From the IMG/VR virus record IMGVR_UViG_2524614847_000002, positions 4,318-68,317 of that record: a stretch of 64,000 nucleotides of DNA, one strand, 5' to 3'. The notes under the pieces were generated by a model. The model saw only the letters and a program-made list of their open reading frames with translations, made no database searches and was not told the origin of the DNA. The first letter of the stretch is position 1. Each line of letters opens with the position of its first letter. The stretch comes from a virus (Duplodnaviria; Caudoviricetes). Position numbers and translations under genes: made by a program. Positions 2,489 to 30,914 of this stretch are shown here, in pieces.

Positions 2489-3178
2489 TTGGGAGAAAAG
2501 ATTTATCAGTCCATAGTCGCCGTCATGGAGGACGTGGGAGCGATTGGAAAGGATAAAAAGAATCAATCGCAAGGATTTATGTACCGCGGAATTGATGATG
2601 TTATGAACGCGCTAAATCCTGCTTTTATTAAAAACAAGATATTTACAGTGCCACAGGTATTAGAGCAGAGCCGCGAGGAACGCACCACGGCAAAGGGTGG
2701 TCTACTGATCTATTCCATCTGCAAGGTTAAGTACACATTTTACGCTGAGGACGGTTCGAATGTAGAAGTTGTTACCATTGGCGAGGGAATGGACAGTGGC
2801 GACAAGGCAACCAATAAAGCTATGGCTATAGCGTTCAAATACGCCTGTTTTCAGCTCTTTTGCATTCCGACTGAGGAAATGTCCGATCCAGACGCTGAAT
2901 GCCATGAATTAGCGAATAAGCCACATGAAAGTAAGCCCAATGTTTCCAGGATTAATAAAAAGCAAGTTGATGAACTGTTGTCTGAGTGCGACCGGATCGG
3001 GAAAAGCGAAAAGGCAATTTGTACTTATTATAAAATCGGAAAGTTTGCTGATATGGACCAGAACCAATACCGAAGCGCTATAAAGAGTTTTAAGGCTACT
3101 CCAGACAAGCCAGTAGTTCCGGCTGATCCCGCAACAATTCCTCCAGATAATGCAGATAATAGCCTGCCGTTCAAATAA
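2489..3178 (+). CDS. ERF-family single-strand annealing protein
   Basis: GEGMDSGDKATNKAMAIAFKYACFQLFCIPT...DPDA motif. Confidence 0.85.
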   Translation: MGEKIYQSIVAVMEDVGAIGKDKKNQSQGFMYRGIDDVMNALNPAFIKNKIFTVPQVLEQSREERTTAKGGLLIYSICKVKYTFYAEDGSNVEVVTIGEGMDSGDKATNKAMAIAFKYACFQLFCIPTEEMSDPDAECHELANKPHESKPNVSRINKKQVDELLSECDRIGKSEKAICTYYKIGKFADMDQNQYRSAIKSFKATPDKPVVPADPATIPPDNADNSLPFK

Positions 3179-4482: not shown

Positions 4483-5319
4483 GTGAGCGAAGGAGGCAAG
4501 GATAAAATAAGCAATCCTCAGCTTGAAGATGGCTATACCCGGGTAGCGAATGAGTTGTTGGAAGCTGTTTTCCATGCTGATTTTAACGGTGCGCAGATAA
4601 GGGTATTGCTTTGCCTGATAAGAAATACCTACGGGTATGGACGGAAGGAATGCGAATTTTCTAATGGATTTGTGGCTAAAGGCACCGGGCTTAATAAAAA
4701 GAGTGTTGCTTTGGTAATGAACAGCTTGCAAGAAGGAAAAGTGATCACTGTAACACAGCAGCCAACCTATACCAGTCCTAAAAAAGTGAAGCTGAATAAA
4801 TGCATAAAAGAGTGGTCCTCTTTACCCCCACAGTGGAAGACGTCACCTACAGGTGTAGACGTCACCAGTGGTACAGGGGAAGACGTCACCAGTGGTACAG
4901 GGGAAGACGTCACCCCCCAAAAAAGAAAGATATTAAAGAAAGATATTAAAGAAATAGTCGAGAAGCCTCCTTACGGAGAAATTATTGATTACTTGAACAG
5001 TAAAACAGGTAAGTCATATCGGTGGCAAGGCAAGGCTACACAAGGTCATATCAATGCGAGATATGCAGAAGGGTATACCGTGGCAGACTTCCAAAAGGTA
5101 ATAGATATCAAGTCGGCAGAATGGAAGGGCGGGGACATGGAACAATACTTAAGACCAGAAACATTATTTGGGTCTAAGTTTGAGGGATATCTAAACCAAG
5201 GAATGGGGAACAAAGGGAACGGTCCATCGAAGAGTAATAAAAACCAATTCCAACAGTTCCCTCAAAGGGATATTGATTATGACGCTCTTGTATTACAGCA
5301 ACTGCAGCAAGGAGGTTGA
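4483..5319 (+). CDS. Phage replication initiator (lambda O-like N-terminus, conserved phage C-terminal domain)
   Basis: PQLEDGYTRVANELLEA; YLRPETLFGSKFEGYLN; internal iterons. Confidence 0.85.
   Translation: MSEGGKDKISNPQLEDGYTRVANELLEAVFHADFNGAQIRVLLCLIRNTYGYGRKECEFSNGFVAKGTGLNKKSVALVMNSLQEGKVITVTQQPTYTSPKKVKLNKCIKEWSSLPPQWKTSPTGVDVTSGTGEDVTSGTGEDVTPQKRKILKKDIKEIVEKPPYGEIIDYLNSKTGKSYRWQGKATQGHINARYAEGYTVADFQKVIDIKSAEWKGGDMEQYLRPETLFGSKFEGYLNQGMGNKGNGPSKSNKNQFQQFPQRDIDYDALVLQQLQQGG
4838..4957. repeat. Iterons plus AT-rich tract (probable phage ori)
   Basis: AGACGTCACC at 4838, 4857, 4881 and 4905 (24-bp tandem unit), then AAAGAAAGATATT x2. Confidence 0.75.
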
Positions 5320-5561
5320 TGGCGGTGGACGAAGAAAGAGCCCGTAAGCTGGCCCGGCATCGAGTGGGAGAAAAGCATCACATGGGAATCTCGATGACCG
5401 ATGAAGAAATCAAGCTGCGCCGGGAATACATGCGCAATATGATCCGCCGGGTTCCTGCTTGGCAGGAGGTTAAGGACGAACAACTTGACAACATGAGGAT
5501 TTATAAGCGGGGAAATGATTGGTACATAGAGGATCAGGACCTTTACGAATATAATTTTTAG
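5316..5561 (+). CDS. Hypothetical phage protein
   Basis: ORF overlapping the upstream stop; GGAGG RBS. Confidence 0.65.
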   Translation: MMAVDEERARKLARHRVGEKHHMGISMTDEEIKLRREYMRNMIRRVPAWQEVKDEQLDNMRIYKRGNDWYIEDQDLYEYNF

Positions 5562-5677
5562 GCTGAATAGTGTTTAAATCGTTTTTATGGCTTGGACGAT
5601 AGAAATGTCGTAGACAGCAAAACGAACGGAATTTGAGCCATCAGCGTGCGCTAGAGAGCGCGAGAAAGGGACAGGAC

Positions 5678-6772
5678 ATGAATAAAAAAGAAATCAACGA
5701 GATCAAGAAGATTTTCACTCCTGCAAATTGCAGCCTTACAAGAATTTGCAGTTGCTATGTAGATGCAGAGAAGAATAAGCGGGCGGAGTTAAAAGAAGCA
5801 TTTCTTTCTCTGCCAGATGAAGAAGTATTTAAGTATTTCAATATATTCCGTGGAGCATTATCAGGTACGGTTGCGAAGAACCTTATTAACCTGGATTCAC
5901 CGAGCGATTATCTGCTGAAACTCAGAGATAGCCGGTTAAGAGATGAAAGCCTGCTTGATGAATTTTACGACAAGGTAATCGAAAGCTATGACTATGGTGA
6001 GAACTATTACATAGTGCTGGTACATGGTATTTATGACGTACCGGGAAAAGCACAGGACGGGACCGTGATGGAAGATGCTTCTGACATTGTCTATGAGTTC
6101 ATTCAGTGCGCTATATGCCCTGTGAAACTGACTAAGGGGGCATTAAGCTACAACATGGATAAGAATGCCATAGAGAACCGGAAAAGGGACTGGATTGTGG
6201 AAGCTCCTGAAACCGGATTCCTATACCCAGCGTTTAATGACCGCCAGACGGATATATATGGAACCTTATACTACACAAAGAAAGCAGACCAGTTGCATGA
6301 TAATCTAATTGACGGATTGTTTGGGACTTGCATTCCAATGTCTGCAGAAGATCAGAAATGCACTTTCGGCGCTATGGTTGAAGAAACATTAGAAGAAGAA
6401 TGCGATTTTACAACAGTTAAAAGCATTTATGAGGATTTGATAGAACGCATCGAGGAATCTGATTCAAATGTGGTTGAGCTTGATTTTAAGCATATGGAGC
6501 AGATGTTTAATGAATATGGCGCAAGTACAGAAAAGATCGATGAATTAAAGGCACGGTTTGAAAACTCTCCTTACAAATTAATCGCATCAAATGTGGTAAA
6601 TACAAAAACCTTTGAGATTAAGACTGAGGGCCTGGAAATCAAAGTTAAGCCAGATTACACAAGCCGTGTTGAGTGCCGTATGATTGACGGCCGCCCATGC
6701 ATCGTAATGGCTGTCAGCGACCATCTGGAGGTGAACGGGATCAGTACAAGACCAATAGGAGCTATGGAATGA
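5678..6772 (+). CDS. DUF4317-family protein
   Basis: MNKKEINEIKK...CYVDAEK...GFLYPAFNDR. Confidence 0.75.
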   Translation: MNKKEINEIKKIFTPANCSLTRICSCYVDAEKNKRAELKEAFLSLPDEEVFKYFNIFRGALSGTVAKNLINLDSPSDYLLKLRDSRLRDESLLDEFYDKVIESYDYGENYYIVLVHGIYDVPGKAQDGTVMEDASDIVYEFIQCAICPVKLTKGALSYNMDKNAIENRKRDWIVEAPETGFLYPAFNDRQTDIYGTLYYTKKADQLHDNLIDGLFGTCIPMSAEDQKCTFGAMVEETLEEECDFTTVKSIYEDLIERIEESDSNVVELDFKHMEQMFNEYGASTEKIDELKARFENSPYKLIASNVVNTKTFEIKTEGLEIKVKPDYTSRVECRMIDGRPCIVMAVSDHLEVNGISTRPIGAME

Positions 6773-6993
6773 AAGCCCGGCACCAGCAAATAAAAGACTT
6801 CATCGTTCAGTACCTTAAAACCCATGGATATCCTCCATCATATCAGGAGATAGGCGAGGGAGTAGGAATGAAAAGCAGAGCAACAGTTTACGCGAATATC
6901 AGGCAGATGAATGAGCTTGGAATCATAAAGGCGGTTCCGGTGCAGCCAAGATGTATAAGCGTGCCGGGGTGGAGGTTTGTGGAAGAGCAGTAA
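6769..6993 (+). CDS. LexA DNA-binding-domain-only regulator
   Basis: FIVQYLKTHGYPPSYQEIGEGVGMKSRATV; no peptidase domain. Confidence 0.8.
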   Translation: MKARHQQIKDFIVQYLKTHGYPPSYQEIGEGVGMKSRATVYANIRQMNELGIIKAVPVQPRCISVPGWRFVEEQ

Positions 6994-7022
6994 ACAGCGG
7001 TTTATCAGAGGAAGGAGAGCGC

Positions 7023-7427
7023 ATGAAAGATACAGAGCATAAGCTTTTAAAGGCGTTTCCGAGAAGCTTTATAAACGAGTTTGGCGAATTTATAGCACAC
7101 GATAAAGCAAATGAGTACTTTATCCTAAAAAACTGTGCTAATGACTTGGATATCAAATGTAAGGTGCTGGAATGGCTATCAAGAGGAGCGTCTAAAACCG
7201 CACCATTCAGGACAAACAAAAAGAATGAGGAATTCAATAATTTCATGCTTTCAGGGATCAATGAATTTCTTTGCACAGAATTTACACGAGAAGAAATGCG
7301 TGATATTTATTCGACACTTGGTAATTGCGTGAACCACGAAAAGACCATTGAATTTATTGAAAGCGGATATAACTTTGATGTGCTTTCAAGGGAAGTAGGT
7401 GCATCAGCGCTTATGTCTGCTACGTAA
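7023..7427 (+). CDS. Hypothetical phage protein (cassette 1)
   Basis: AAGGAG RBS; KCKVLEWLSR...IYSTLGNCVNH. Confidence 0.75.
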   Translation: MKDTEHKLLKAFPRSFINEFGEFIAHDKANEYFILKNCANDLDIKCKVLEWLSRGASKTAPFRTNKKNEEFNNFMLSGINEFLCTEFTREEMRDIYSTLGNCVNHEKTIEFIESGYNFDVLSREVGASALMSAT

Positions 7428-7497
7428 AACCCAGATTTAACTGAATAAGAAAGGAGGCGGAGTTTCCCGGGAAGATGCGCATCGGCTCCTTTCTAAA

Positions 7498-8223
7498 ATG
7501 AAAATATGCTGGTTTAGTACAGGGATATCGTCCTTTGTGGCTTGTTATCTAGCAAAGGATATTGACCAAATTATATATACACATGTTGAGAATCAACACC
7601 CCGATAGTATGCGCTTCCTCCATGATTGTGAGAAACTACTGGGGAGGAAAATTGAAATAATAAAATCAGACAAATATACAGGGGTAGATGAAATTATTGA
7701 GAAGACAAAAACCTTTAATACTCCTTTTGGAGCACCCTGTACAAGATGGCTTAAGAAGCAAGTGAGAAAAGATTGGGAGAAAGAGAATCCTGATCACCAC
7801 ACTTACATATGGGGATATGATGTAAACGAAATACGCAGGGCAGAGGCCGTACAGGAGGCACTTACCGATTATGACCATGAATTTCCGCTGATTGAACATG
7901 GATTAACAAAAGCAGAATGCCACGGAATAGCATATAAACTTGGGCTGAAACGTCCCGTCATGTATGACCTGGGATACCCCAATAATAACTGCCTTGGCTG
8001 CGTTAAAGGTGGCATGGGGTACTGGAACAAAATCAGAATTGATTTTCCTGAGGTGTTTGAACGCCGGGCGAAGCAAGAACGGGAATTTGGGCGTAGTTGC
8101 ATAAATGGTCTGTATTTAGATGAATTGGAACTGGACCGGGGGAATATGGATATGGAAGTTTTTGAGGACTGTACAATAGCATGTCAGATATTAACATGGG
8201 GAAAAGATATTCAAAAAAATTAG
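7498..8223 (+). CDS. PAPS-reductase-like (adenine nucleotide alpha-hydrolase) protein (cassette 2)
   Basis: WFSTGISS PP-loop-like motif; PCTRWLK; NNCLGCVKGG. Confidence 0.75.
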   Translation: MKICWFSTGISSFVACYLAKDIDQIIYTHVENQHPDSMRFLHDCEKLLGRKIEIIKSDKYTGVDEIIEKTKTFNTPFGAPCTRWLKKQVRKDWEKENPDHHTYIWGYDVNEIRRAEAVQEALTDYDHEFPLIEHGLTKAECHGIAYKLGLKRPVMYDLGYPNNNCLGCVKGGMGYWNKIRIDFPEVFERRAKQEREFGRSCINGLYLDELELDRGNMDMEVFEDCTIACQILTWGKDIQKN

Positions 8224-8238
8224 TATTTAGGAGAGTAA

Positions 8239-8469
8239 ATGGAAGGACAAATTAATTTATTTGAATGTTTAAATCAACCTCCGCCTATTGGCAGTACGGT
8301 ATATTTTATAACCTGCAGCAAAATAAAAAAAGCAATAGTGATTAGCCTTGATGCTTCTTTCGCAGGTTTTCCATGTACGGGATATATTAAGGTTCAGGGA
8401 CCAGATGGGCAAACATGGAGTGTAAAAAATTTCTATAAATCTAAAAGCGAAGCAAATAAACATATTTAG
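8239..8469 (+). CDS. Hypothetical protein (cassette 3)
   Basis: AGGAG RBS; MEGQINLFE start. Confidence 0.65.
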   Translation: MEGQINLFECLNQPPPIGSTVYFITCSKIKKAIVISLDASFAGFPCTGYIKVQGPDGQTWSVKNFYKSKSEANKHI

Positions 8470-8501
8470 GATTTCCCGGAGCAACGGGAGAAAGGGGAAA
8501 A

Positions 8502-8723
8502 ATGAAATTTACAATTGACTATGAAGAAAGAGTTTCCAGAATTAATAGTGTTACCATAGAAGTGGAAGATGAAGAAGAGGGAGAGGCCATTGCTGACGAA
8601 TTGTATGACATGGCTGATAGCTGGAGTCACCCGGATGATATTTTTGGAGCCTTGGGAGAGATAGGAAAGAAAGTTGTGGAGAGATGCGAAGGTGCTGAAT
8701 CGGCAGAATATGAGATCCAGTAA
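8502..8723 (+). CDS. Small acidic hypothetical protein (cassette 4)
   Basis: RBS present; very D/E-rich 73 aa. Confidence 0.7.
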   Translation: MKFTIDYEERVSRINSVTIEVEDEEEGEAIADELYDMADSWSHPDDIFGALGEIGKKVVERCEGAESAEYEIQ

Positions 8724-8826
8724 ACTGAGATTTGCATGATTAACCATATCCCCGGCATCGGGAAAATGGTGTAAAGAAAGGAGGCTGGAGCCGTCCGGAC
8801 GATAAGGTACCTGGCTCCTTTCAAAA

Positions 8827-9657
8827 ATGGGATTAGAAGTATTTGAAAATTATAAGTGTGATGGTCAGATGGAAATGACCGATTACACCGGAAACAGGCA
8901 GCTTACACATCTATCTCTCTTTTCTGGTATTGGTGGCCTTGATCTGGCAGCTGAATGGGCTGGATTTATGAGTGTGGGTCAGTGTGAATGGGCCGATTAT
9001 CCGACAAAGGTATTAGAAAAGCACTGGCCTGATGTAGAAAGGTGGAGAGATATACGTGAATTGCACGCAGATGAATTTATTCGAAGAACAGGAATCAAGT
9101 CGGGAGAACTTACCGTTATATCAGGGGGCTTCCCGTGCCAGCCACATTCGGCTGCTGGATTGCGTAAAGCGTCTAGTGATGAACGTGATCTATGGCCGGA
9201 GTATAGGCGTGTCGTTAGCGAGATTAAGCCAAGATGGGTTGTGGCTGAAAATGTACGGGGACTCCTATCAAGTGAATCTGGACGGTTCTTTCGAGGAATA
9301 CTCAGGGATTTTGCCGACATGGGGTATGATGTTGGGTGGTGTTGTTATAGAGCTGCCGACGTCGGAGCGATACATTCCAGAGAACGGATTGCAATTGTTG
9401 CCCACTCCAACAGCAAGCATGTGGAAAGGCACATCGAAAAGCAGATTCAAAGGAAGTCCAGATTATCACGGGAGTTTTACGGCAGAGGCATTGAGAAATG
9501 GACCGAACGATCCAATGTATTTGAACCCAAGTTACTGCGAAATTTTAATGGGGCTCCCGACTGCGTGGACAGAATTAAAGCATTAGGGAATATGGTTGTA
9601 CCACCGCAGTTTTACCCTATATTCAAGGCAATAGCTGGCATAGAGTTACACGGGTAA
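8827..9657 (+). CDS. C5 cytosine DNA methyltransferase, large polypeptide (cassette 5)
   Basis: Motifs I LFSGIGG, IV GFPCQ, VI ENV, VIII RER, X KALGNMV; motif IX not evident. Confidence 0.9.
   Translation: MGLEVFENYKCDGQMEMTDYTGNRQLTHLSLFSGIGGLDLAAEWAGFMSVGQCEWADYPTKVLEKHWPDVERWRDIRELHADEFIRRTGIKSGELTVISGGFPCQPHSAAGLRKASSDERDLWPEYRRVVSEIKPRWVVAENVRGLLSSESGRFFRGILRDFADMGYDVGWCCYRAADVGAIHSRERIAIVAHSNSKHVERHIEKQIQRKSRLSREFYGRGIEKWTERSNVFEPKLLRNFNGAPDCVDRIKALGNMVVPPQFYPIFKAIAGIELHG
9056..9586 (+). CDS. Overlapping-frame small polypeptide of the C5 MTase (TRD and motif IX)
   Basis: 176-aa nested ORF with LLPTPTAS and LNPSYCEILMGLPTAWT; GGAG upstream of GTG 9056. Confidence 0.65.
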   Translation: MNCTQMNLFEEQESSRENLPLYQGASRASHIRLLDCVKRLVMNVIYGRSIGVSLARLSQDGLWLKMYGDSYQVNLDGSFEEYSGILPTWGMMLGGVVIELPTSERYIPENGLQLLPTPTASMWKGTSKSRFKGSPDYHGSFTAEALRNGPNDPMYLNPSYCEILMGLPTAWTELKH

Positions 9658-9722
9658 ACGAAGATTTTCAAGAGTAGAAACAATGAAACTATAGGTACAG
9701 CTTTTACAAAGGGGGAAAGAAA

Positions 9723-10730
9723 ATGAAAGAGAGGATTATTAATGAAATCTTAATGCAGATGGAACCACATATCAATACTGAGACATTGAGGATACTGGAA
9801 ACAGTAATCATTAAGGCATTGTATTATGTGGAGGTCACGAAGAAAGAGACAGAGTTATCCACGGAAATGGACGATAATATCTACTTGCTGCAGGTCTATG
9901 AAATGAACGTCAAGAAAGACGGGCTGAGCGAAAAGACTGTTAGGGCTTACATGGGAGCTATGAAAAATATGCTCTGCGTCACTGACAAGAACATTCGTCA
10001 TATCACAGCAGTGGATATCAAGTATTACCTGGACATGTATGCTGGAAAGGGTAATTCAATCAGGACCGTAAACAACGAGAGACGCTTTCTTTCAGCAGTA
10101 TTCACATGGTTCCGTAAGCATGGGGTTATAAATACTAACCCGGTTGAAGCTGTACCAGTTAAGAAAGAACGTAAACCACCTATTGATTACCTAAAAGGTG
10201 TGGAGATTGAGAGGCTGAGAGTAGCATGTACAAATCCAAGAGAGCGGGCCTTGATGGAGTTCTTACTCAGCACAGGTGTGAGAATTGGAGAGGTTCCGCA
10301 GATCCGCAAGCAGGACATTGACTGGAGCACTGGTGAGATCGTGATATATGCTCATAAGACCTCAGATTATCGGACAGTGTACCTAAACGATGTTGCCAAG
10401 GTCCACCTGGAGAAGTATCTGACCTCCAGGAGCGACAACAGCGAGGCATTGTTTGCACGGGTAAGGGCTCCACACAATGCAGTAAATGAGGACGGGTTAA
10501 GGTTGGTTATCAAGCAGATCGGTGAGAAGGCCGGATTAAAGCGGAGAGTATATCCTCACCTCTTCCGCAAAACCATGGCAACCACTCTTAGAATCAAAGA
10601 TTGTGCCATAGAGGACATTCAGCAGATACTTGGACACAAGGACGCATCAACAACACTTGGATTCTATGCGGCAGCCAACGGTGAGCATTTGAGGCAGGTA
10701 CATAACAGATATATGAGCATTGGAGCATAA
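9723..10730 (+). CDS. XerC/D-like tyrosine recombinase (not the prophage integrase; putative cassette/shufflon recombinase)
   Basis: TGVRIGE, HK, YPHLFRKT, LGH, FY catalytic set; internal to the prophage, just after the last repeat site. Confidence 0.9.
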   Translation: MKERIINEILMQMEPHINTETLRILETVIIKALYYVEVTKKETELSTEMDDNIYLLQVYEMNVKKDGLSEKTVRAYMGAMKNMLCVTDKNIRHITAVDIKYYLDMYAGKGNSIRTVNNERRFLSAVFTWFRKHGVINTNPVEAVPVKKERKPPIDYLKGVEIERLRVACTNPRERALMEFLLSTGVRIGEVPQIRKQDIDWSTGEIVIYAHKTSDYRTVYLNDVAKVHLEKYLTSRSDNSEALFARVRAPHNAVNEDGLRLVIKQIGEKAGLKRRVYPHLFRKTMATTLRIKDCAIEDIQQILGHKDASTTLGFYAAANGEHLRQVHNRYMSIGA

Positions 10731-10739
10731 GGAGGATAT

Positions 10740-11000
10740 ATGTATAGATCAGATGATTGGGTTGATGGTTTCTATATCGACAACCACGAGAAATATGAAT
10801 GTATGTGCTGTGAGAAACAGTTTATTGTAGGAGAAGAATCGCTGAAAGGGCGAGAGACGAATAAACCGAAATGCCCTTATTGTGGAGCGTCACAGGTTGA
10901 ATTAACAGTATGGACGGAAGATGATCAGCTTGAAGAATTGAGTTCTGATTTAGGGTGTTTGGCAATCCATGTACAGACCGGTATGGAGGAAAGCGATTAA
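10740..11000 (+). CDS. Zinc-ribbon hypothetical protein
   Basis: CMCC...CPYC; AAGGAGG RBS. Confidence 0.7.
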   Translation: MYRSDDWVDGFYIDNHEKYECMCCEKQFIVGEESLKGRETNKPKCPYCGASQVELTVWTEDDQLEELSSDLGCLAIHVQTGMEESD

Positions 11001-11218
11001 TGAAAGAGATAATTATAAAAGCGGCAACAACAGTTATGAAAGTAGCAGTACTTTATGTAGCTGCAATGTCGGCTATATTGGCCGGCACAATTGGATTAGC
11101 AATACCAGAGTTAGGGTTTGGGATATTAGTTGTAGCTGGATTATACCTCATTATGTTAGAAGTATTAAACAAAGGAGGGAATGACCATGACAGCGGCAGA
11201 AATGAAGATGGAACATGA
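11000..11218 (+). CDS. Small membrane protein
   Basis: Two hydrophobic segments; TAATG coupling with the upstream gene. Confidence 0.55.
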   Translation: MKEIIIKAATTVMKVAVLYVAAMSAILAGTIGLAIPELGFGILVVAGLYLIMLEVLNKGGNDHDSGRNEDGT

Positions 11219-11432
11219 CCGGGAATATTTCAGTATGCGTGCTGCGGAAGCAGAAAGGGCGGAGAACCAGATCAGCCAGATCCGGGCAGCGATAGCAATA
11301 CATAAACAAAATCACAGTGATTCTATGGTGATGACACATGACCAGAAGAAAAAGGCGGAAGAACAGTGTGCATGGAAGGCCTTGGATAATATCGAAAAGG
11401 AAATTGAGGCTATTATAGGACAGGAGGGTTAA
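11181..11432 (+). CDS. Hypothetical protein
   Basis: AAGGAGG RBS. Confidence 0.6.
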   Translation: MTMTAAEMKMEHDREYFSMRAAEAERAENQISQIRAAIAIHKQNHSDSMVMTHDQKKKAEEQCAWKALDNIEKEIEAIIGQEG

Positions 11433-11434
11433 CA

Positions 11435-11734
11435 ATGTCAAAAAGAAAGATTTACGCTGTCTACGATGATGGCGAAAAGATAGGGAGTTATACCGCTGCA
11501 GAGGCAGAAGAAGAACTAGGGATTCCCCAGAAACATGTTTCGGCATATGCAAAAAACAATTGGAAGTACCAAGGGAGATATAACTTTTCACCACAAGAAG
11601 GATTTCAAGAAGGAATACAGAATAAGGAGCCACGTGAAAAGAGCTATATTAGCAATGGATTAGCCCTGGACTGGGATTTTACAACGAAAATGCTACTGGC
11701 TGTAGGAGGGAGGAAAGTGCATGGAAAAGGCTGA
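11435..11734 (+). CDS. Hypothetical protein (NUMOD/HTH-like)
   Basis: YAVYDDGEKIGSYTAAEAEEELGIP; GGAGG RBS. Confidence 0.6.
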   Translation: MSKRKIYAVYDDGEKIGSYTAAEAEEELGIPQKHVSAYAKNNWKYQGRYNFSPQEGFQEGIQNKEPREKSYISNGLALDWDFTTKMLLAVGGRKVHGKG

Positions 11735-12158
11735 GATCATTGCAGCGCTGAATGATTACATAGATGCCAAGGAACTATATGACGAGACTGTGAAGGAGAT
11801 TGCAAGGCTCCAGAGGCGGAAGGGTACTGTGCTGCAGGATTCCGTAAAGGGGTCCATGCAGGAGTTTCCCTATGCAGCTAAGAACTTTCATATTGCAGGG
11901 ATTGTGTATTCGCCAGAAGATGATTCCAAACTAAGGCAAGATGAGGATATACTTGCAGAGAGAGCCAGGACAACAGGAGAAACTAGAAGAAAGGTTGAAA
12001 TGTACATCAACCGGATTCCGGCGAGAATGCAGCGCATTATAAAGTATAAGCTGTTCGAATGTGAAACGTGGGAAGATGTTGCTGCCAAACTTGGACGCAA
12101 AGCCACAGGAGAGAGTGTAAAAAAAGAATATCAGCGCTTCATGGAACAGGATAAATAA
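11721..12158 (+). CDS. RinA/ArpU-like late-gene activator
   Basis: C-terminal sigma-4-like RIIKYKLFECETWEDVAAKLG; last early gene before the late promoter. Confidence 0.7.
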   Translation: MEKAEIIAALNDYIDAKELYDETVKEIARLQRRKGTVLQDSVKGSMQEFPYAAKNFHIAGIVYSPEDDSKLRQDEDILAERARTTGETRRKVEMYINRIPARMQRIIKYKLFECETWEDVAAKLGRKATGESVKKEYQRFMEQDK

Positions 12159-12162
12159 AGAT

Positions 12163-12204
12163 TGTCCCGAATGTCCCACATGTCCTGATTGATTATTATA
12201 TAAT
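12163..12204 (+). promoter_or_regulatory. Probable late promoter
   Basis: TGTCC at a 9-bp period (12163, 12172, 12181), then TATAAT at 12199. Confidence 0.55.
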
Positions 12205-12339
12205 GTAAACTGGAACCAGTGAAAACATACACTCCCCTTATGTTCACTTGGTATCATGCAGTGCAGCGCATATACTGCAAACACAAATTCCCCTTAAAGG
12301 TTTTACACATAAGGGCATGCCGGTCTGATTCCGGCATAG

Positions 12340-12412
12340 TGTAACATAGCTCAACGGTTAGAGCGCCCGGCTTATATCCGGTAGGTTCTCGGTTCGAATC
12401 CGAGTGTTACGA
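12340..12412 (+). tRNA. tRNA-Ile, anticodon UAU
   Basis: Cloverleaf: TGTAACA/TGTTACG acceptor, GCTC/GAGC D-stem, CCGG-CT-TAT-AT-CCGG anticodon arm, CTCGG-TTCGAAT-CCGAG T-arm; no encoded CCA. Confidence 0.8.
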
Positions 12413-12418
12413 TTCAAT

Positions 12419-12492
12419 CGGCGCATAGTTCAGCGGCAGAACAACAGTAATCCCCCTGACTGGAAACCCTGGTTCGAATCCGGGTGCGCGGT
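12419..12492 (+). tRNA. tRNA-like or pseudo-tRNA with an aberrant anticodon arm
   Basis: D-arm GTTC/GAAC and T-arm CCTGG-TTCGAAT-CCGGG intact; anticodon stem CAGT/ACTG encloses a 10-nt loop. Confidence 0.55.
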
Positions 12493-12520
12493 TCGTTCAC
12501 TCATAATTATCCTCCTTATA

Positions 12521-12563
12521 GAAAAACACCTGTCTTGTGTAACTCGATGGGTGTTTTTCTTTT
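12521..12563 (+). terminator. Hairpin terminator after the tRNAs
   Basis: GAAAAACACC...GGTGTTTTTC followed by a T-run. Confidence 0.55.
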
Positions 12564-12584
12564 GTTTAGAAAGAAGTTGATAGA

Positions 12585-12962
12585 ATGTTAAAATCATGCA
12601 GCTATTGTGGTCGCATTCATGATACTAAATACAATTGTGGTAAAAGGCCGCAGAAGCAGAAGAAGATCACATACATAGATCGATTCAGAAGCTCACGTAA
12701 ATGGAGGGAGAAAAGGGAGCAGATACGGCGCAGAGACTTAAACCTATGCCAGATTTGTATAAGGAATCTGTACGGCACAGATCGCCAGTACAACTATGAA
12801 GATTTATCAGTACATCATGCTGTGCCTATGGAAACTGATTTCAGCAAGAGACTTGATGATGATAACTTACTGACCATGTGTTCAATGCACCATAAGATGG
12901 CTGAGGTTGGAGAGATACCGTATAAAGAGATTAAGATGATTATAGATGAACAGGAGGAATAA
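12585..12962 (+). CDS. HNH endonuclease (terminase-associated)
   Basis: CQIC...VHHAVP...NLLTMCSMHH, upstream of terS. Confidence 0.85.
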   Translation: MLKSCSYCGRIHDTKYNCGKRPQKQKKITYIDRFRSSRKWREKREQIRRRDLNLCQICIRNLYGTDRQYNYEDLSVHHAVPMETDFSKRLDDDNLLTMCSMHHKMAEVGEIPYKEIKMIIDEQEE

Positions 12963-12965
12963 GCA

Positions 12966-13157
12966 ATGTTTATACATGAAGCTGTTAAAGAAGCGATCAG
13001 CAAGAATGCCACTATAGGAAGAGAATCATGGAGAGAAAGCGGAATTGAATACTTACTTACAGAACCAATTGCGATATGTAAAAAATCTAATGAACCACGA
13101 TTCTGGAATCCAACGACTGATGACCTGATGGCAGATGATTGGGAGGTTGTGGAATGA
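12966..13157 (+). CDS. DUF2829/Tad2-like protein
   Basis: MFIHEAVKEA...RESW...WNPTTDDLMADDWEVVE. Confidence 0.7.
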   Translation: MFIHEAVKEAISKNATIGRESWRESGIEYLLTEPIAICKKSNEPRFWNPTTDDLMADDWEVVE

Positions 13158-13435
13158 AAATAAAACAAATAAAAGGCGTGATGATGGAATGCTCTGAATG
13201 TCATAGGCTTATTCCTTTTGAAGAAACTATATCAGATAAAACATGCTGCCCTACATGCGGTGGGACAACGAAAGCTATAAACACTTGCACTATCGTAGTG
13301 AGAGAACATGAAGAGGGTATGAATGATTTAATAATAAAGCAGTGGGAACTGTTTGGTAAACTGCTTAACGAGCAGACGGAATACATTGTTTGTGAAGCAA
13401 TGAGGAGGTTACATTGTGAAAGGAATAATGATTAA
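13154..13435 (+). CDS. Zinc-ribbon hypothetical protein
   Basis: CSEC...CPTC; ATGA overlap. Confidence 0.55.
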   Translation: MKIKQIKGVMMECSECHRLIPFEETISDKTCCPTCGGTTKAINTCTIVVREHEEGMNDLIIKQWELFGKLLNEQTEYIVCEAMRRLHCERNND

Positions 13436-13628
13436 ATGCTTGCAATGCAGCCTTATGTCAGTATACGAAGCAGATAAAGCAGATGGGCACAGATGCCCTG
13501 AGTGTGGAGGATATACGATGCCATACGGAAAATGTTACATTGGTATAGATGTGGGGAGCGAGAAGGATGAAGTTGTCTATTATGCTGATGGTAAGGAATA
13601 TTTTAGAGGGGTATCCCCCCGGGGATAA
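13416..13628 (+). CDS. Zinc-ribbon hypothetical protein
   Basis: CLQC...CPEC. Confidence 0.55.
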   Translation: MKGIMIKCLQCSLMSVYEADKADGHRCPECGGYTMPYGKCYIGIDVGSEKDEVVYYADGKEYFRGVSPRG

Positions 13629-13726
13629 GGGTGCTAGAAATTTAAAACGCTTGGACACCGACGCCCCACATCTAAATACACAATATCTTAGAAATGAAAA
13701 TTCAGGCTCAAAGGAAGGTGATAAAA

Positions 13727-14194
13727 ATGGCAAGGCCAGCAAAATCAGCAAAAGTAAAATCAGGTACGATCACGAAGGAAGAGGAAGTAAAGCGAATTGA
13801 ACTTGAAGATAAACTCAGAGGAAAAAACGACAAACTGGTTCCTCCGATATATCTTACTGTGAGCCAGATGGACATTTTTAACTACGTAATGGTAGAGCTT
13901 AAGGAAGCAAATATCCTTGGGAACCTCGATCTATTCATACTCGCACAGACGGCTATTGCTGTTGACCGTATTCAGGATTTTGACAGACAGGCAAACGAAA
14001 AACCGGAATTGCTTTTGACAAACGCTTTCCGGCAGGCAAGGTCTGAGGCATCAAAAGAATATTTTAGATGCTGCAATGAACTATGCTTATCCCCTCAGAG
14101 CCGTGCTAAGCTGTCCATTGCGAAGGTGAATCCGAGTGAAAAGAAAAAGACACTCATGGACATTATAAATGAGGACGACGAAGAAAACGATTAA
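13727..14194 (+). CDS. terS: Terminase small subunit (P27 family)
   Basis: MARPAK...ELCLSPQSRAKL. Confidence 0.85.
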   Translation: MARPAKSAKVKSGTITKEEEVKRIELEDKLRGKNDKLVPPIYLTVSQMDIFNYVMVELKEANILGNLDLFILAQTAIAVDRIQDFDRQANEKPELLLTNAFRQARSEASKEYFRCCNELCLSPQSRAKLSIAKVNPSEKKKTLMDIINEDDEEND

Positions 14195-15854
14195 TCACCC
14201 GGCAGTTGCATACGCTGAGGGAGTATGCAAAGGAGAAATAAAAGCACCTAAATATGTAATATTGCAATGCGCCGATTTTATAAACACATTTGAAGGCAAA
14301 AATGAGAAGTATATCATAAATGAAAAGCTGTTGGGGAAAATATATAAGATTTTAAAAGCCTTAAAGATGGCAAAGGGGCCAAAGGCGGGTAAATCAATAT
14401 ATAACTCCCTCGCTGGATATCAATGGGTACTTATCACGGCGGTATTATGTACGGTATACCGGGAAGATACAAGATTAAGGCGTTATCAGACCGCATTATT
14501 AGAGATTTGCAGAAAGAATGGTAAAACATTTGTTGTCGCTGTTCTATTTATTTTGCTTTTCTATTTGGAACCGGCATATTCAAGATTCTTTTCGGTTGCA
14601 CCTGACGGATCACTTGCAAGAGAAATTAAAGAGGCATTAGAACCTATTATAGCAACGAATATAGAGATGTTCGAAGAAAATGAGTTCAAGGTTTTAAGAG
14701 ATTACATACTTCACAATCCAACAAAAACAAAGTACACGCCTTTGAATTATTCAACAAGCAGAATGGACGGTAAAGAGCCGTCTGTTTTTATTGCTGATGA
14801 AGTAGGCGCACTCCCGACATCCTATGCGATTGAATCCATGCGATCCGGGCAGCTTCTTGTTAAAAACAAACTAGGATTCATTATCTCAACTAAATATCCA
14901 ACCGCAGATAACCCACTAGAAGATGAGGTAGATAACGCCAAAAAGATATTGGACGGCCTTATAGATGATGAAACAGTGTTTGCATTACTTTATGAGCCGG
15001 ATAATAAGAAAGATTGGGCTACTGACAATGATGTTATGGCGCATGGAAACCCACTTGCACTTGAATTGAAAACTGTGTGGGAAGAACTATTAAGAAAGAG
15101 AAACGGAGCGATAAACCGTGAAAAGCTCAGAGAAAACTTCTTAACAAAGCATTGTAATATCGCCTACCAGGGAGCAGGTACGGAAACTTATGTACCAATA
15201 GACGAGGTTAAGGCATGCAAGTCAGAAAAGATTAAATGGTCAGGTCGCGAAGTATACGTTGCTGTTGACTTATCAATGACGAATGATAACTGTTCAGTCA
15301 CAATGTCTGCGGAAAACTATGGTGAGATACTGAGTAAAACAATGACTTTCATTCCAGAAGGTCGTATTGATGAAAAGACAGAATTTGAAAAATTTGATTA
15401 TAGAGCAGCTATTGCCTCCGGTAACTGTATTTCCTGCGGCGACATGACAATAGATTATGATGTTGTGGAGGAATATGTATTTTCTATTGAAGAAAGATTC
15501 GGAGTGATTATAAAAGCTATTGGATATGACAGATACAATGCTTTGTCAAGTGCTCAAAAATGGGGAAAGAAATATACCGTAATTGAGATAAGACAGCATT
15601 CAGATACGCTTCACCCTCCGACAAAATTACTTGCTGAAAAAATAGCAAATAAAGAGTGGCATTATGAGGAAAACAGATTGCTAGAAACGAATTTTGAAAA
15701 TGCCAAATGCACCTATGATACCAACATGAATAGATATGTAAACAAGAAAAAGTCAAATGGAAAAGTTGATGCCGTTGTAAGTACCATAAACTCAGTATAT
15801 CTGTTACAGCAAGATATTTTGTTTGGTAGTGAAATTGTAGTACAGGTCATTTAG
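14169..15854 (+). CDS. terL: Terminase large subunit
   Basis: Walker A RKNGKT, Walker B IADE, nuclease motifs VDLS and KVDAVVS. Confidence 0.95.
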   Translation: MRTTKKTINHPAVAYAEGVCKGEIKAPKYVILQCADFINTFEGKNEKYIINEKLLGKIYKILKALKMAKGPKAGKSIYNSLAGYQWVLITAVLCTVYREDTRLRRYQTALLEICRKNGKTFVVAVLFILLFYLEPAYSRFFSVAPDGSLAREIKEALEPIIATNIEMFEENEFKVLRDYILHNPTKTKYTPLNYSTSRMDGKEPSVFIADEVGALPTSYAIESMRSGQLLVKNKLGFIISTKYPTADNPLEDEVDNAKKILDGLIDDETVFALLYEPDNKKDWATDNDVMAHGNPLALELKTVWEELLRKRNGAINREKLRENFLTKHCNIAYQGAGTETYVPIDEVKACKSEKIKWSGREVYVAVDLSMTNDNCSVTMSAENYGEILSKTMTFIPEGRIDEKTEFEKFDYRAAIASGNCISCGDMTIDYDVVEEYVFSIEERFGVIIKAIGYDRYNALSSAQKWGKKYTVIEIRQHSDTLHPPTKLLAEKIANKEWHYEENRLLETNFENAKCTYDTNMNRYVNKKKSNGKVDAVVSTINSVYLLQQDILFGSEIVVQVI

Positions 15855-25922: not shown

Positions 25923-27853
25923 TGTATAAAGTGACAGTAAAAACAAATGGAACGGAATATCTACTTCATGAGCCACGGGATGATAGTGGAGAATTACAGC
26001 TTATTGATCCTACACTTTCGGAGCAAGTGGGAAAGAACGGGACATTCACATTTACAATATCACCACTTCACCCGAACAAAGATAAAATTATTCCAATGGC
26101 AAGCGAGATTTTCATATACAAGGACGGAGAAAAAATACTTTGCTGCCGTATGATAGATAGCGAAAGTGATTTCTATAATACAGGCCGGGCAACTTGTGAG
26201 GGGGAGCTTGCACTCCTGCTTGACAGCGTGCAGCGTCCATATGAGTATACTGGAAGCCTGTATAATTTCTTTGTACAGCTTCTTAATACTCACAACAGCG
26301 AGGTTGAGGAAAGAAAGCGGTTTGAAGTTGGAAATGTAACAATAGCCGGGACGGAGATAACAAGGTCAAATTCCGAGTACTCTACCACAATGGCGGAAAT
26401 GCTAAGTCAGCTTACCGATATAAATGGTGGGTATCTTAGAATACGGTATTCAAATGATAAAAAATATCTGGATTATGTAAGTGATTATGGCGGGGTAAAC
26501 AACCAGGTAATACGGTTCGGAGAAAACATTCTAGACTTAACAAAGCATGTGGAACCTACCGCCCTGATTACCGCATTGATCCCTACCGGGGCCACGATAA
26601 CAAGTGATGATTCTGGGATAGCAGATTCCGTTGTAAATATCACTTCCGTGAATGGTGGGAAGGATTACATATACGATGAAACAGCGGTTTCCGCCTATGG
26701 TTGGATATGGGGGACACAATCATTTGAAGATGTTACGGACCCTAAAGCCTTGCTTGCAAAGGCCAGAGCATACCTTGAAGAAGCAGTAACAATACCTGAG
26801 ACAATCGAACTAAACGCGGTTGATTTAAGCACAATAGGCGTTGAGGTTGAATCTCTAAAGTTGGGATACTGGACTAACATAATAAGTAAACCTCATGGAT
26901 TAAATAAGCGGTTTTTGCTGTCACAAAAGATCACAGGGCTTGCAAACCCGGCAAAAAATAAAATCGTGTTAGGTAGGGTACTGGATACATTTACAGGTCA
27001 GGCAGCAAAGGAAAAGGCGCAGATCACAGCAAGAATCAATGCAGTAGCGGCCAGTGCAAGTAATGAAATAAACAGGAAGGTTGAGAACGCTACACAACTC
27101 ATCACAGGCGGAAAAGGTGGATACGTAGTTCTTGATGTATACGATCCTGATTCCGGGGAAAAGATACATCCATGGAGAATTCTTATTATGGATACTCCAG
27201 ATAAGGAGACAGCCCGGAGTGTGATTCAGTTCAATAAAAATGGATTTGGATTTTCTACTACTGGAATCAATGGACCATACCGGAATGCCTGGACAATTGA
27301 TGGAAATCTTGTTGCAGACTTTATCACAACGGGGACCATGTTAGCAGATCGAATCAGAGGTGGAACATTAGAACTTGGCGGAACTGGACTTGGTAAAGAT
27401 GGTTCTATCATTGTAAAGAATGCATCAGGAGCAACCATAGGATATTGGGATAAGACCGGGCTTCATGTGCTAACGGGAACTATTTCAGGAACTCAAATAT
27501 CGGGTTCTATCTTTACTGGTGGAGCAATTTACGCGGGTGTTCTCAGGGCTGATGCTGGCGGAGCGCAGTTAGGTGATTATTATGTGAGTGCAGACGGAAG
27601 TAATTTGCTACGATCTACCGATGGTTCTGTGGCTATCCAAACATCACAGGGAGGTCCTTTCGGCAAATATGCGGCAATAAATTTGAGTTCTCAATCAGGA
27701 ACTACTATATTGTCTGACCATCATTTGGAAACACCATTTGTTGATGCAAGGCAGATCAATGGGGATTGTGAATTACGTGGAGGTAACTGGTGGCAAGGTT
27801 ATACATTGTTTAGTGCACTTGACTTTCTGTATAATAAAATAGAAAACCTATAA
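25922..27853 (+). CDS. Tail hub/spike (Tal-like) protein
   Basis: QVIRFGENILDL...ITALIPTG; AWTIDGNLVADFITTGTM. Confidence 0.85.
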   Translation: MYKVTVKTNGTEYLLHEPRDDSGELQLIDPTLSEQVGKNGTFTFTISPLHPNKDKIIPMASEIFIYKDGEKILCCRMIDSESDFYNTGRATCEGELALLLDSVQRPYEYTGSLYNFFVQLLNTHNSEVEERKRFEVGNVTIAGTEITRSNSEYSTTMAEMLSQLTDINGGYLRIRYSNDKKYLDYVSDYGGVNNQVIRFGENILDLTKHVEPTALITALIPTGATITSDDSGIADSVVNITSVNGGKDYIYDETAVSAYGWIWGTQSFEDVTDPKALLAKARAYLEEAVTIPETIELNAVDLSTIGVEVESLKLGYWTNIISKPHGLNKRFLLSQKITGLANPAKNKIVLGRVLDTFTGQAAKEKAQITARINAVAASASNEINRKVENATQLITGGKGGYVVLDVYDPDSGEKIHPWRILIMDTPDKETARSVIQFNKNGFGFSTTGINGPYRNAWTIDGNLVADFITTGTMLADRIRGGTLELGGTGLGKDGSIIVKNASGATIGYWDKTGLHVLTGTISGTQISGSIFTGGAIYAGVLRADAGGAQLGDYYVSADGSNLLRSTDGSVAIQTSQGGPFGKYAAINLSSQSGTTILSDHHLETPFVDARQINGDCELRGGNWWQGYTLFSALDFLYNKIENL

Positions 27854-27927
27854 AACTGATCTATCCGGGAGTTGCACAGTGTGAAATGTTGTGTTACCAT
27901 GTAAAAAAGAGAATCGGAGGTAAAACT

Positions 27928-28302
27928 ATGAGAATGAAACGTTTGCTTTTTATTGTGGCAATGATGATTTTTTCTTTGAACATGACTTCTTTTGCCGAAG
28001 AGCGGAGACCATTAGGAGAAAATGAAACAAGACCCAGGTGGGGAGTGATGAATGAAGAATATCTCCCTAGAAAGAATGAGTGGTATCATCAATATGATGG
28101 GGCATGGATATATCTTGATGAAGATGGGTATACGTTACAAAACACATGGTTTCATGACCCTGCTAATGGGAGGTGGTACTATTTCGATGAGTATTGCTAC
28201 ATGCTCCATGACACCACCACACCAGACGGATATTATGTCGGGGCAGATGGTGCTTGGGTAAAAGATGGACAGGCGGTTATTGAGACAGTAGCCAACAAAT
28301 AA
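27928..28302 (+). CDS. Secreted cell-wall-binding-repeat protein (moron)
   Basis: Signal peptide; WYYFDEYCYM repeats; TTTPDGYYVGADGAWV; own promoter (TTGCAC-17-TACCAT, 27872-27900) and terminator. Confidence 0.75.
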   Translation: MRMKRLLFIVAMMIFSLNMTSFAEERRPLGENETRPRWGVMNEEYLPRKNEWYHQYDGAWIYLDEDGYTLQNTWFHDPANGRWYYFDEYCYMLHDTTTPDGYYVGADGAWVKDGQAVIETVANK

Positions 28303-29807: not shown

Positions 29808-30584
29808 ATGGGAATTTTAGGAACTGTAGGCATAGCGGATAAAGGTACCTATAATGCAAGCGCAACATATGTAACCGGAAATTCAGTTTACTATGAAGGA
29901 TCGACATGGACGGCACTTAAAGACAATTTAACTGGAATCCAGCCGGAGGAAGGAGAAAACTGGAAGTATCTGGCTCGTGGCTTTGGATCCGATAGTCTAT
30001 CACAAATAGAAGGCAAGGATACCAGTGGAGTACTTGGTCCGGCTGGCGCAAATGTAATCAGTCAGGCATTGGTTGATGCATTAGCTGATAGAGTAATGAC
30101 AAAGTTATTTCCTAACTCAAACATAGTAAATAATGGCCTTACAACGCAGGCAGGATTTGCCCTTGATGCTCGTTATGGAAAGACTTTAAAGGATTTGTTT
30201 GATGGACTAAATAGCAATTTGAATGATATAAAAAACGTATCTTATTCAGTTGGTAGTGGCATTGATGCCAATAGTTGCTCCGGTGGTATTATATATCTTC
30301 TCCAAAAGAATTCCCTTTGCCAAATCCGGGGGTCTATAACCATCGTTGCTGCTTTGAATAACGACTCAAGTAGGTCAATATTTTCCCCAGAATTTAATGG
30401 TCAGGCTTATTCACCTATACCCGATGGAATGCTATTGACTTATCACGTAAGATACCAAGATATTACCGGTTACTTATCTTATGATGCGACTACAAAAACA
30501 TTTAAGCTGTTTAACTATAGCGGGAAAACAATAGCAGCTAATTCCTTCATCGAAATATGGGGCAATTATATTTCACATTTTTAA
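29808..30584 (+). CDS. Tail fibre/receptor-binding protein with a switchable C-terminus
   Basis: Constant N-terminus (IVNNGLTTQAGFALDARYGK) up to LNSNL, then variable tip cassette A. Confidence 0.8.
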   Translation: MGILGTVGIADKGTYNASATYVTGNSVYYEGSTWTALKDNLTGIQPEEGENWKYLARGFGSDSLSQIEGKDTSGVLGPAGANVISQALVDALADRVMTKLFPNSNIVNNGLTTQAGFALDARYGKTLKDLFDGLNSNLNDIKNVSYSVGSGIDANSCSGGIIYLLQKNSLCQIRGSITIVAALNNDSSRSIFSPEFNGQAYSPIPDGMLLTYHVRYQDITGYLSYDATTKTFKLFNYSGKTIAANSFIEIWGNYISHF

Positions 30585-30914
30585 ATGATCATTTATTGTA
30601 ATGTAATAGGTGACCTCAGTATGCACCAATATATTTTTAAACTTTCGGAGGCGTAGGTTGGGCTTGTATTATATGCCATTAGTTTGAAGCCGGTTGAGGT
30701 TAAGACAACGGCACTTACTTCCACATCGGCCCACCCGGCACCCATGCCGCCCTTACTTAAAACTATAGCATAGTTATCATCTGTCAAAGGAGCACCAAAT
30801 GGAATGTCATAAGTCACACTGCCTAGTGGTTGTAACGCACCTATGGTGTATGACCAGTGCTGCACATTTTTTGCCAGCCTATCGTTTAATACAGTTAAAT
30901 TGCTATTTAATGGA
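30203..30914. other. Invertible tail-fibre segment (shufflon)
   Basis: Perfect 13-bp inverted repeats TAAATAGCAATTT at 30208-30220 (+) and 30897-30909 (-); central palindrome TAAATGATCATTTA at 30582-30595. Confidence 0.85.
30593..30910 (-). CDS. Silent alternative tail-fibre tip (cassette B)
   Basis: Minus strand reads LNSNLTVLNDRLAKNVQHWSYTIG...ITLQ*, in the same frame across the repeat as cassette A. Confidence 0.8.
   Translation of the reverse strand, partial: LNSNLTVLNDRLAKNVQHWSYTIGALQPLGSVTYDIPFGAPLTDDNYAIVLSKGGMGAGWADVEVSAVVLTSTGFKLMAYNTSPTYASESLKIYWCILRSPITLQ

Follow-up and report, generated by a model that had tools for sequence, protein, structure and literature searches.

Position-specific dyads in fixed order at the early-gene junctions of a prophage, and their relation to gene exchange between related phages

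Results

Six junction sites upstream of a phage recombinase gene

The virus record IMGVR_UViG_2524614847_000002, classed as a provirus, is 68,317 bp in length, and its bases 4318-68317, a stretch of 64,000 nucleotides referred to here as the window, carry in the early region a series of six short dyad-symmetric sites at consecutive gene ends, next to the gene for a tyrosine recombinase (REC). The canonical integrase gene is located at the contig start on the minus strand, and is followed by the genes for CI-like, Cro-like and anti-repressor proteins. On the 3' side of the anti-repressor gene stand the DUF1351, ERF, RepO-type replication and DUF4317 genes, and then the site array (Table 1).

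The six 24-mers listed by an earlier sequence-only reading of this DNA are all present, position by position and letter by letter. The five units between them agree with its description in Pfam and PHROG searches, and REC begins 49 nt past the last site. The stop codon was described as lying inside each site. Its position is not constant: the stop is the left-arm TAA in sites 1, 5 and 6, is off by one base in site 2 (an extra A), and is a TAG within the centre in sites 3 and 4. From the proposed consensus TC-N4-AAAY-N4-RTTT-N4-GA, the dyad core was retained, but the terminal TC and GA are weak, the GA because it is part of the following GGAG or TGA. Common to the sites is a dyad of 14 bp, TAAAY-N4-RTTT(A), after which N2-3-GGAG-TAR usually comes; the dyad can also be described as the inner arms TAAA and TTTA around a six-base centre. 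As had been noted, the motif is not found at the other early junctions at 4478, 5319, 5561, 6772, 10730 and 11000. A general repeat search did not report the six sites as one family, because they are too short and degenerate.

Table 1. Positions of the junction sites, the genes between them and the tail-fibre sites in the window (SD, Shine-Dalgarno sequence).
Feature	Position	Strand	Description
ERF-family single-strand annealing protein	2489..3178	+	Pfam PF04404 2e-28; phage's own homologous-recombination function
LexA-DBD, 74-aa LexA_DNA_bind-domain protein	6769..6993	+	Pfam PF01726 7e-12
Site 1	6986..7009 (dyad 6991-7004)	+	dyad TAAACAGCGGTTTA; centre CAGCGG; TAA is the LexA-DBD stop; then SD of the 7023 gene
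phrog_7711 protein	7023..7427	+	PHROG; cargo of slot A-B
Site 2	7421..7444	+	dyad TAAAACCCAGATTTA; centre CCCAGA, class B; phrog_7711 gene stop; then structured leader
PAPS-reductase-like (PP-loop) protein	7498..8223	+	phrog_424 3e-40; Pfam PF01507 weak; cargo of slot B-C
Site 3	8211..8234	+	dyad AAATTAGTATTTA; centre TTAGTA, class C; contains the stop TAG of the PAPS-reductase-like gene
Two small open reading frames (76 and 73 aa)	8239..8723	+	no Pfam/PHROG family; cargo of slot C-D
Site 4	8457..8480	+	degenerate TATT-TAGG-ATTT; then CCCGG...CCGGG hairpin and SD
Site 5	8716..8739	+	dyad TAAACTGAGATTT; centre CTGAGA, class D; stop of the 73-aa gene
C5 cytosine DNA methyltransferase	8827..9657	+	Pfam PF00145 1e-41; NCBIfam dcm; cargo of slot D-E
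Site 6	9650..9673	+	dyad TAAACGAAGATTT plus TCAAGAGTAG; centre CGAAGA, class E; C5 methyltransferase stop; right edge of the variable region
REC, armless Xer-like tyrosine recombinase	9723..10730	+	Pfam PF00589 2e-29; SAM-like N-domain; best PDB match XerA 5hxy
Tail fibre, left site	30208..30220	+	TAAATAGCAATTT; inside gene 29808-30584; codes LNSNL
Tail fibre, palindromic dyad	30582..30594	.	TAAATGATCATTT; supplies the stops of the two convergent tip frames; the shared tip cassette ends here on the right
Tail fibre, right site	30897..30909	-	inverted copy of TAAATAGCAATTT; the 106-aa silent tip frame (30593-30913, minus) opens from it

In IMG/VR, the REC family has 335 matching stretches, and 21 loci carry close relatives of REC (75-96% identity). 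Several of the sites recur in related phages, designated below by L or G numbers. The L017 junction orthologous to site 1 (TAAACGCAGGTTT) likewise precedes a phrog_7711 gene. The 13-mer of site 3 reappears as an island in L015 and L018, and the full version of site 4, TAAATTAGGATTT plus the same hairpin, is present in L011, L012, L014 and L017. Sites 3 and 4 are members of a recurrent allele class, AAAT-TAG(T/G)-ATTT, found in the relatives. The site 5 allele is identical in L004, L015 and L124.

Enrichment of the dyad at stop codons

One explanation of the sites would be a chance likeness of A/T-rich sequence downstream of stop codons. The core AAAY-N4-RTTT alone occurs 23 times in the 64-kb window, five of them within 6992-9656, and the register had been chosen by eye in the earlier reading. 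With leave-one-out position weight matrices, sites 1 to 6 rank 101, 36, 88, 246, 6 and 14 among 127,954 positions. We give counts for a set of close-REC phage DNA (328 kb), using the stops of frames of 50 or more codons and, as controls, four motifs with N3 or N5 spacing or with one letter altered. The dyad matched 104 times in this set, with 36 matches at stops, against 0-5 at stops for the controls; REC-less phage DNA of the same G+C (1.22 Mb) gave 165 matches, 23 of which were at stops. After contexts at least 80% alike were collapsed, 33 stop dyads were left, compared with 0-4 for the controls.

Among plus-strand TAA stops in the close-REC set, 31 of 411 (7.5%) are closed by the dyad, while each of the four controls gave 0-1 of 411, and the motif at stop codons is thus above background. 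The proportion was 30 of 1192 (2.5%) in loci with distant REC homologues (39-48% identity), and 14 of 1488 and 5 of 265 (0.9-1.9%) in two REC-less sets, showing a graded enrichment from close REC through distant REC to no REC. By its strict form, the motif has 22 matches in 358 kb of the close loci, 19 on the gene strand, and most are the stops of long, unrelated frames. The controls, the non-redundant count of 33 and the ordered centres described below have refuted chance, to which we leave a practically negligible probability.

The dyad is followed by GGAG after 2-4 nt, often then by TAR, and stands in a single orientation with transcription. In about eight cases the stop codon is located 1-7 nt upstream of the dyad, indicating that the dyad is a unit of its own. 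The Y and the R of the two arms vary independently of each other, which favours a symmetric DNA-binding protein over a base-paired hairpin.

Fixed order of centres and unrelated cargo

The six-base centres of the dyads fall into five classes: A, CGCxGG-like; B, CCxxxx; C, TTAxxA; D, CTGAxA; and E, CGAAxA. In the window the order is CAGCGG, CCCAGA, TTAGTA, the degenerate site 4, CTGAGA and CGAAGA. The class order is constant in 21 loci, with 83 concordant pairs against one discordant, for classes that were set after the data had been viewed; three class-A centres (CACCTG, CAGCGG and TGCAAG) were placed by position, and without them the count by hand is about 68 to 1. None of 5000 within-locus shuffles matched the observed concordance, and the shuffle and Fisher figures are descriptive only, because the loci are related.

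The centres of L004 are CACCTG, CCCGTA, TTAGTA, CTGAGA and CGAAGA, and the genes between them differ from those of the window. G000 and L004 hold the same five classes in the same order, and are homologous only in the LexA-DBD gene, the leader and REC. The order is kept both in the group of loci with the array upstream of REC and in a second group with the array downstream, REC being at the array edge in both gene orders, and also in L124, where REC is 37% identical. The genes between the sites are different: among locus pairs with a common slot, only 2 of 85 share any cargo gene cluster, and in the other 83 the cargo is unrelated. One dyad sequence, TAAACGAATATTT, is found in three or more contexts with both flanks unrelated. 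The sites are a fixed scaffold in which the cargo is replaced slot by slot, which is the opposite of an integron.

The sequence-only reading had taken the locus for an integron-like array, in which REC inserts, excises or reorders single-gene cassettes within one genome by way of unlike sites. As in integrons, single-gene accessory units are split here by short recombination-type sites, and adjoin a tyrosine-recombinase gene. L004, L010, L012 and L124 also contain arrays, with three to six dyads in succession; L011 has a run of four TAAACCC-type stops, one of which is a full dyad. The phrog_7711 gene of L017, downstream of REC there, and the PAPS-reductase-like gene of L011, in the same slot as in the window, are found on the other side of REC. 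This change of side, however, moves the whole ordered array and not single cassettes, and neither of these two genes has dyads on both sides in those loci. Unlike an integron integrase, REC is Xer-like and gives 77.4 bits with the model TIGR02249 (cut-off 265), in two stretches, and 44 against 435 with PRK15417. The sites are 14-bp dyads, not folded attC sites: no attC-like hairpins were found, and RNA folds of junctions 1, 5 and 6 were no better than those of shuffles (z -1.07, -0.84 and +1.79). The order with position-specific centres is fixed, and the same site class is present in a tail-fibre gene as well. The 83-to-1 order largely refutes insertion, excision or reordering of cassettes, and we consider an integron-like system very improbable.

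Breakpoints of homology at the dyads

The gene content of related phages differs, and the variation is bounded by the motif. Homology to the window starts at 8716 in L002, and resumes at 9655, 9651 and 9641 in L003, L021 and L004, respectively; that of L017 spans 6990-7393, and those of L012 and L015 span 7427-7500. Site 6 and the TCAGGAGTAG tail attached to it recur without change downstream of four unrelated genes (L003, L004, L006 and L021), with breakpoints at about 0 and +16 to +24. Of the homology tracts that reach the 32 dyad junctions between variable genes, all 45 end there and none crosses, compared with 164 that end and 84 that cross (of 248) at 178 variable junctions without a dyad, the tracts not being independent of one another.

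Several other short elements were found at the junctions. A leader of about 50 nt is located directly 5' of the starts of the PAPS-reductase-like and methyltransferase genes (7447-7497 and 8774-8826), and the same leader is present in L003, L010, L012, L015, L019, L020, L105 and L116. Its outer stem, GAAAGGAGGC/GGCTCCTTTC, holds the SD and encloses two perfect palindromes, of which the letters are wholly different between loci and the palindromy is kept, with 6-bp restriction-site-like cores such as CCCGGG+TGCGCA, TCCGGA+GGTACC, TGGCCA+GATATC and CGGCCG+GAATTC. Ten distinct forward copies, mostly before DNA-modification genes, were collected; the fold z was only -1.0 and -1.7. On the 3' side of site 5 (8737-8775), a block of about 40 nt can be read as a 12-codon mini-frame (MINHIPGIGKMV). 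It is found upstream of REC in L002, L007, L018 and L020, is present or absent as a unit, and in the relatives resembles an extended -10 promoter-like element. A portable hairpin, GCTGCC-(3-4 nt)-GGCAGC, directly before AGGAAGGAG and the start codon, is more frequent in the related loci than any other island 13-mer, being located at many junctions of L004, L010-L018 and L124, and at about 24550 in the window. A pair of modules, promoter-like TTGTTCCTTGATAATTGAATATTGATAGTTGG and terminator AACCAACTATCAATATTCGGTAGTTGGTTTTTT with the common word CAACTATCAATATT, flanks one gene in several hypervariable regions (L008, L012, L015, L016, L118 and L105).

Dyads of the same class in the tail-fibre gene

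The two TAAATAGCAATTT copies of the tail-fibre region (the AGCA dyads) form a perfect 13-bp inverted pair, and both read LNSNL in frame. In L023, L024 and L025, the expressed tip is common with that of the window from 30185-30208 to 30594-30596 with 92-99.5% identity (L023, 99.5%, and L025, 92%, starting at 30206/30208). This shared block extends almost exactly from the AGCA dyad to the GATC dyad, and the DNA beyond it differs. In L027, homology picks up again at 30897. Eight more REC-bearing records (G001-G006, G010 and G015) contain the AGCA pair, so that REC co-occurs with the tail-fibre pair in nine records; the pair is also found in REC-less G011.

The contigs of four sequencing runs over 27000-33500 gave no strand-change joint, contigs being apt to drop rare forms, and one of them is colinear through both tail-fibre sites. 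The early array is contained in only two of the runs, X1 and X2, which come from one sample, possibly the source. No match to the alternative-tip protein P0001 in a fused longer form was found among proteins of 187-2000 aa, which is weak evidence, and within viral contigs P0001 was found at one locus, L034, where the tip is silent too. REC is located about 20 kb upstream of the tail-fibre sites, not adjoining the segment.

REC as the candidate enzyme

REC gives its best scores with the XerA, XerC and XerD models, all below the cut-off (171 bits against 220 for XerA). The catalytic set is intact, R187, K212, H279, R282, H305 and Y315 being invariant in six homologues. The sequence-only reading had likewise described the recombinase as intact, and the single-gene units beside it lie in a region that is hypervariable. 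In 60 loci with REC homologues of 39-48% identity, 18 of 30 stop dyads are within 4 kb upstream of REC. The dyad geometry TAAA-N6-TTTA suits a 6-bp centre, with 4-5 conserved bases per arm; the left outer flank is not conserved. A search for REC-less close relatives through the c13 replication gene returned only REC-bearing contigs.

Other candidates for the enzyme, the site or the reader of the dyad were rejected. The dyad presumably resembles the crossover sites of the Hin and Gin invertases; a serine invertase was rejected, as no Resolvase-family (serine recombinase) gene was found in the 68-kb virus record, the host genome being outside the scope. The palindrome CAATGT-N6-ACATTG, located after REC in group-2 loci, is not present in the window or in group 1, and was rejected as a universal REC site. 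The LexA-DBD protein was rejected as a general reader, since homologues are present in only 4 of the 22 close-REC loci. The dyads were also rejected as CI/Cro operators, the CI/Cro intergenic region having GAAAACT-type repeats and no dyad.

In the second gene-order group (L010:8947-9130, L011, L012, L016, L017 and L008), a highly conserved non-coding trailer of about 185 nt follows the REC stop. It has a terminator-like hairpin with a compensatory stem (TCCC/GGGA vs TCTC/GAGA) and the palindromes AACAAACCGGTTTGTT and CAATGT-N6-ACATTG, and it is not present in the window.

Other features of the window

The Pfam match of the C5 methyltransferase reaches only position 179 of the 324-position model, and an open reading frame of 176 aa overlaps the gene in another frame (9056-9586); the gene is possibly split. 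Two tRNA genes, 12340-12412 and 12419-12492 (Rfam, 64 and 36 bits), separate the early region from the packaging region, and the large open reading frames beyond them are probably packaging and virion genes. An Rfam search of 5000-15000 of the window and of L010 and L017 returned tRNAs only, leaving the dyads, the leaders and the 185-nt trailer unmatched. The record has four tyrosine recombinases in total, including two to the right of about 34.9 kb (34974-36104 and 44381-45631, both on the minus strand), which probably belong to other integrative elements in tandem.

Discussion

The dyads form a motif family enriched at gene ends, with centres in fixed order, unrelated cargo in the slots and breakpoints of homology at the dyads. 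We hold firmly that the six sites belong to an ordered, position-specific set of dyads marking the places at which accessory genes and tail-fibre tips are exchanged among related phages. That this scaffold provides fixed points of crossover, at which such phages swap genes in register, is a reading on which we stand evenly balanced. Under this reading, temperate Clostridia-type phages would keep the position-specific dyads in order, and the accessory genes in each slot would be replaced. A crossover at the dyads would swap single genes or small gene sets in register, and a dyad of the same class would bound the exchangeable tail-fibre tip.

The enzyme, if there is one, would most likely be the phage's own Xer-like REC. 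Tyrosine recombinases need identical overlap regions, and slot-specific conserved centres are what an identical-overlap tyrosine recombinase would select for. Strand exchange would then need identical centres. The sequence-only reading had proposed a heterology-tolerant strand exchange from the differences between the centres; these are position-specific and conserved between phages, which fits exchange between like-centred sites only. With unlike centres, adjacent direct sites would not recombine to delete the DNA between them, and each site could exchange only with a like-centred one in another genome. We infer only tentatively that the dyad is read by a protein and that REC is this protein, giving it a little over one chance in three in our own estimation. 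A full natural cassette exchange mediated by the recombinase, in which REC recombines only like-centred dyads between co-resident related phages and genes or tips are replaced without deletions, seems to us somewhat unlikely.

An alternative, which we likewise regard as possible and rather unlikely, is that the dyad is an operator-like or translation-linked 5' element of the downstream gene, read by a DNA-binding regulator, that the genes are swapped by relaxed homologous or microhomology recombination, with the phage's ERF, at the dyads and at other conserved junction modules, and that REC does other work such as tail-fibre inversion, dimer resolution or regulation. The following points weigh against crossover at the dyads by REC, in favour of such a regulator, or both. 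The recombination event itself was never observed. The junctions without a dyad are mosaic too, with the 164 tract ends at 178 junctions, and therefore the dyad is not needed for exchange at gene boundaries; the phage encodes an ERF protein. The centre and the right half of the dyad segregate with the downstream gene, and c19 orthologues precede four different centres, a pattern compatible both with an expression element at the 5' end of the gene and with a crossover in the left arm. The spacing between dyad and GGAG is fixed (2-4 nt) in one orientation with transcription, and the independent Y and R of the arms fit a symmetric DNA-binding protein, not base pairing. The hairpin-plus-SD module GCTGCC-loop-GGCAGC is an even commoner island than the dyad, and island behaviour can therefore arise from expression signals; the leaders and the promoter/terminator blocks show the same island and breakpoint behaviour.

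The distribution of REC weighs against its link to the dyads, and in part for the regulator. G011, which is 82% complete with a DUF4317 gene 92% identical, is without REC and yet has early dyads and the tail-fibre sites; the REC-less G011, G013 and G014 hold one to three such dyads each. In phage phiCs5676-1 (REC 40%) a single junction dyad was found and the AGCA pair is missing, and G006 (REC 44%) has the tail-fibre pair and no dyad array near REC. The co-occurrence of REC and dyads is confounded, because the REC-bearing and REC-less sets differ in lineage. Four to five conserved bases are short for an arm of a tyrosine-recombinase site, no inverted tip arrangement was found among ten tail-fibre regions, and the limits given above for the order counts also have to be set against crossover at the dyads.

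Other observations are not in agreement with the regulator. The CI/Cro repeats of the immunity region are of another type, so that the dyad does not serve as the operator there, and the LexA-DBD protein, as counted above, is absent from most of the loci. The inverted pair of the same class in and after the tail-fibre gene bounds alternative tips, where an operator makes little sense. The position-specific centres conserved across phages are left unexplained, and so are the 0 of 45 tracts crossing a dyad junction. The precedents for this alternative are MrpR with its SPBRE element (PMC10516654) and the PeSLs (PMC2839356), and both differ from the present case. In SPbeta, SPBRE is a short element at many prophage intergenic junctions, read by a protein of the tyrosine-recombinase fold; MrpR has lost catalytic residues according to that text (PMC10516654), and REC retains all of them. 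The stoperators of Cluster A mycobacteriophages are also short elements at many intergenic junctions (PMC9283540). Unlike the dyads, SPBRE and the stoperators are repressor sites, for which the accessible parts of PMC10516654 and PMC9283540 report no slot-specific centres, and the immunity region here uses another repeat, of the GAAAACT type.

The PeSLs of T4-type phages are small conserved junction modules that bound insertions, deletions and replacements in hyperplastic regions (PMC2839356), and replacements between relatives are bounded by the dyads as well. The PeSLs consist of a promoter and a terminator stem-loop and recombine by homology (PMC2839356). The dyads, unlike these, are of 14-24 bp, have no stable hairpin, and are dyad-symmetric with slot-specific centres in fixed order. 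A promoter-like -10 at a fixed distance from the dyad was not seen by eye, no promoter scan having been made.

The Rci shufflon is an analogous system to the proposed exchange of tips. Bifidobacterium prophages with the Rin shufflon encode, besides the canonical integrase, an armless Xer-like tyrosine recombinase, and their short crossover sites are located in the receptor-binding gene and just past its 3' end, with inverted alternative C-terminal segments (PMC6109161). REC is likewise armless, has an intact active site and is separate from the integrase. In contrast to REC, rin adjoins its invertible segment, and its rix site is an 11-bp asymmetric repeat (PMC6109161); inversion was not seen here, and the available part of PMC6109161 describes no early-gene array for Rin. 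The pdif sites of Acinetobacter plasmids are multiple Xer-type sites that flank adaptive genes as exchangeable dif modules, and are acted on by the host XerC/XerD (PMC6449649). Here the candidate recombinase is phage-encoded, each arm has only 4-5 conserved bases, and the sites follow one another in fixed order at the stop codons of a phage operon.

In nature, the proposed scheme would correspond to the cassette exchange that is engineered with heterospecific recombinase sites. Heterospecific lox and FRT sites have common arms and unlike centres, like recombines with like, and the replacement is in register without deletion. Those systems are laboratory designs, and the present scheme is a proposal for natural phages. 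We know of no natural phage system of cassette exchange between heterospecific sites, and literature searches (supplements not covered) gave no description of ordered junction dyads in phages.

Why the joints of phage mosaics are located at gene boundaries is an old open question, with two views: random illegitimate recombination followed by selection, or recombination at conserved linker sequences. In this prophage, the junction sequence is better conserved than the adjoining genes and marks where homology stops, and the linker model can be put to a direct test here, in a system with six sites, a single candidate enzyme and relatives already identified. A regulator acting at the dyads would make them a stoperator-like control layer in Clostridia phages. 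If cassette exchange takes place, it would give a site-specific answer to the mosaic joints that fall exactly at gene boundaries. Were a recombinase to drive it, genes for anti-restriction and DNA modification, as well as the determinants of host range, would have a new route by which to spread among gut phages, and the sites would be a natural source of orthogonal recombination sites.

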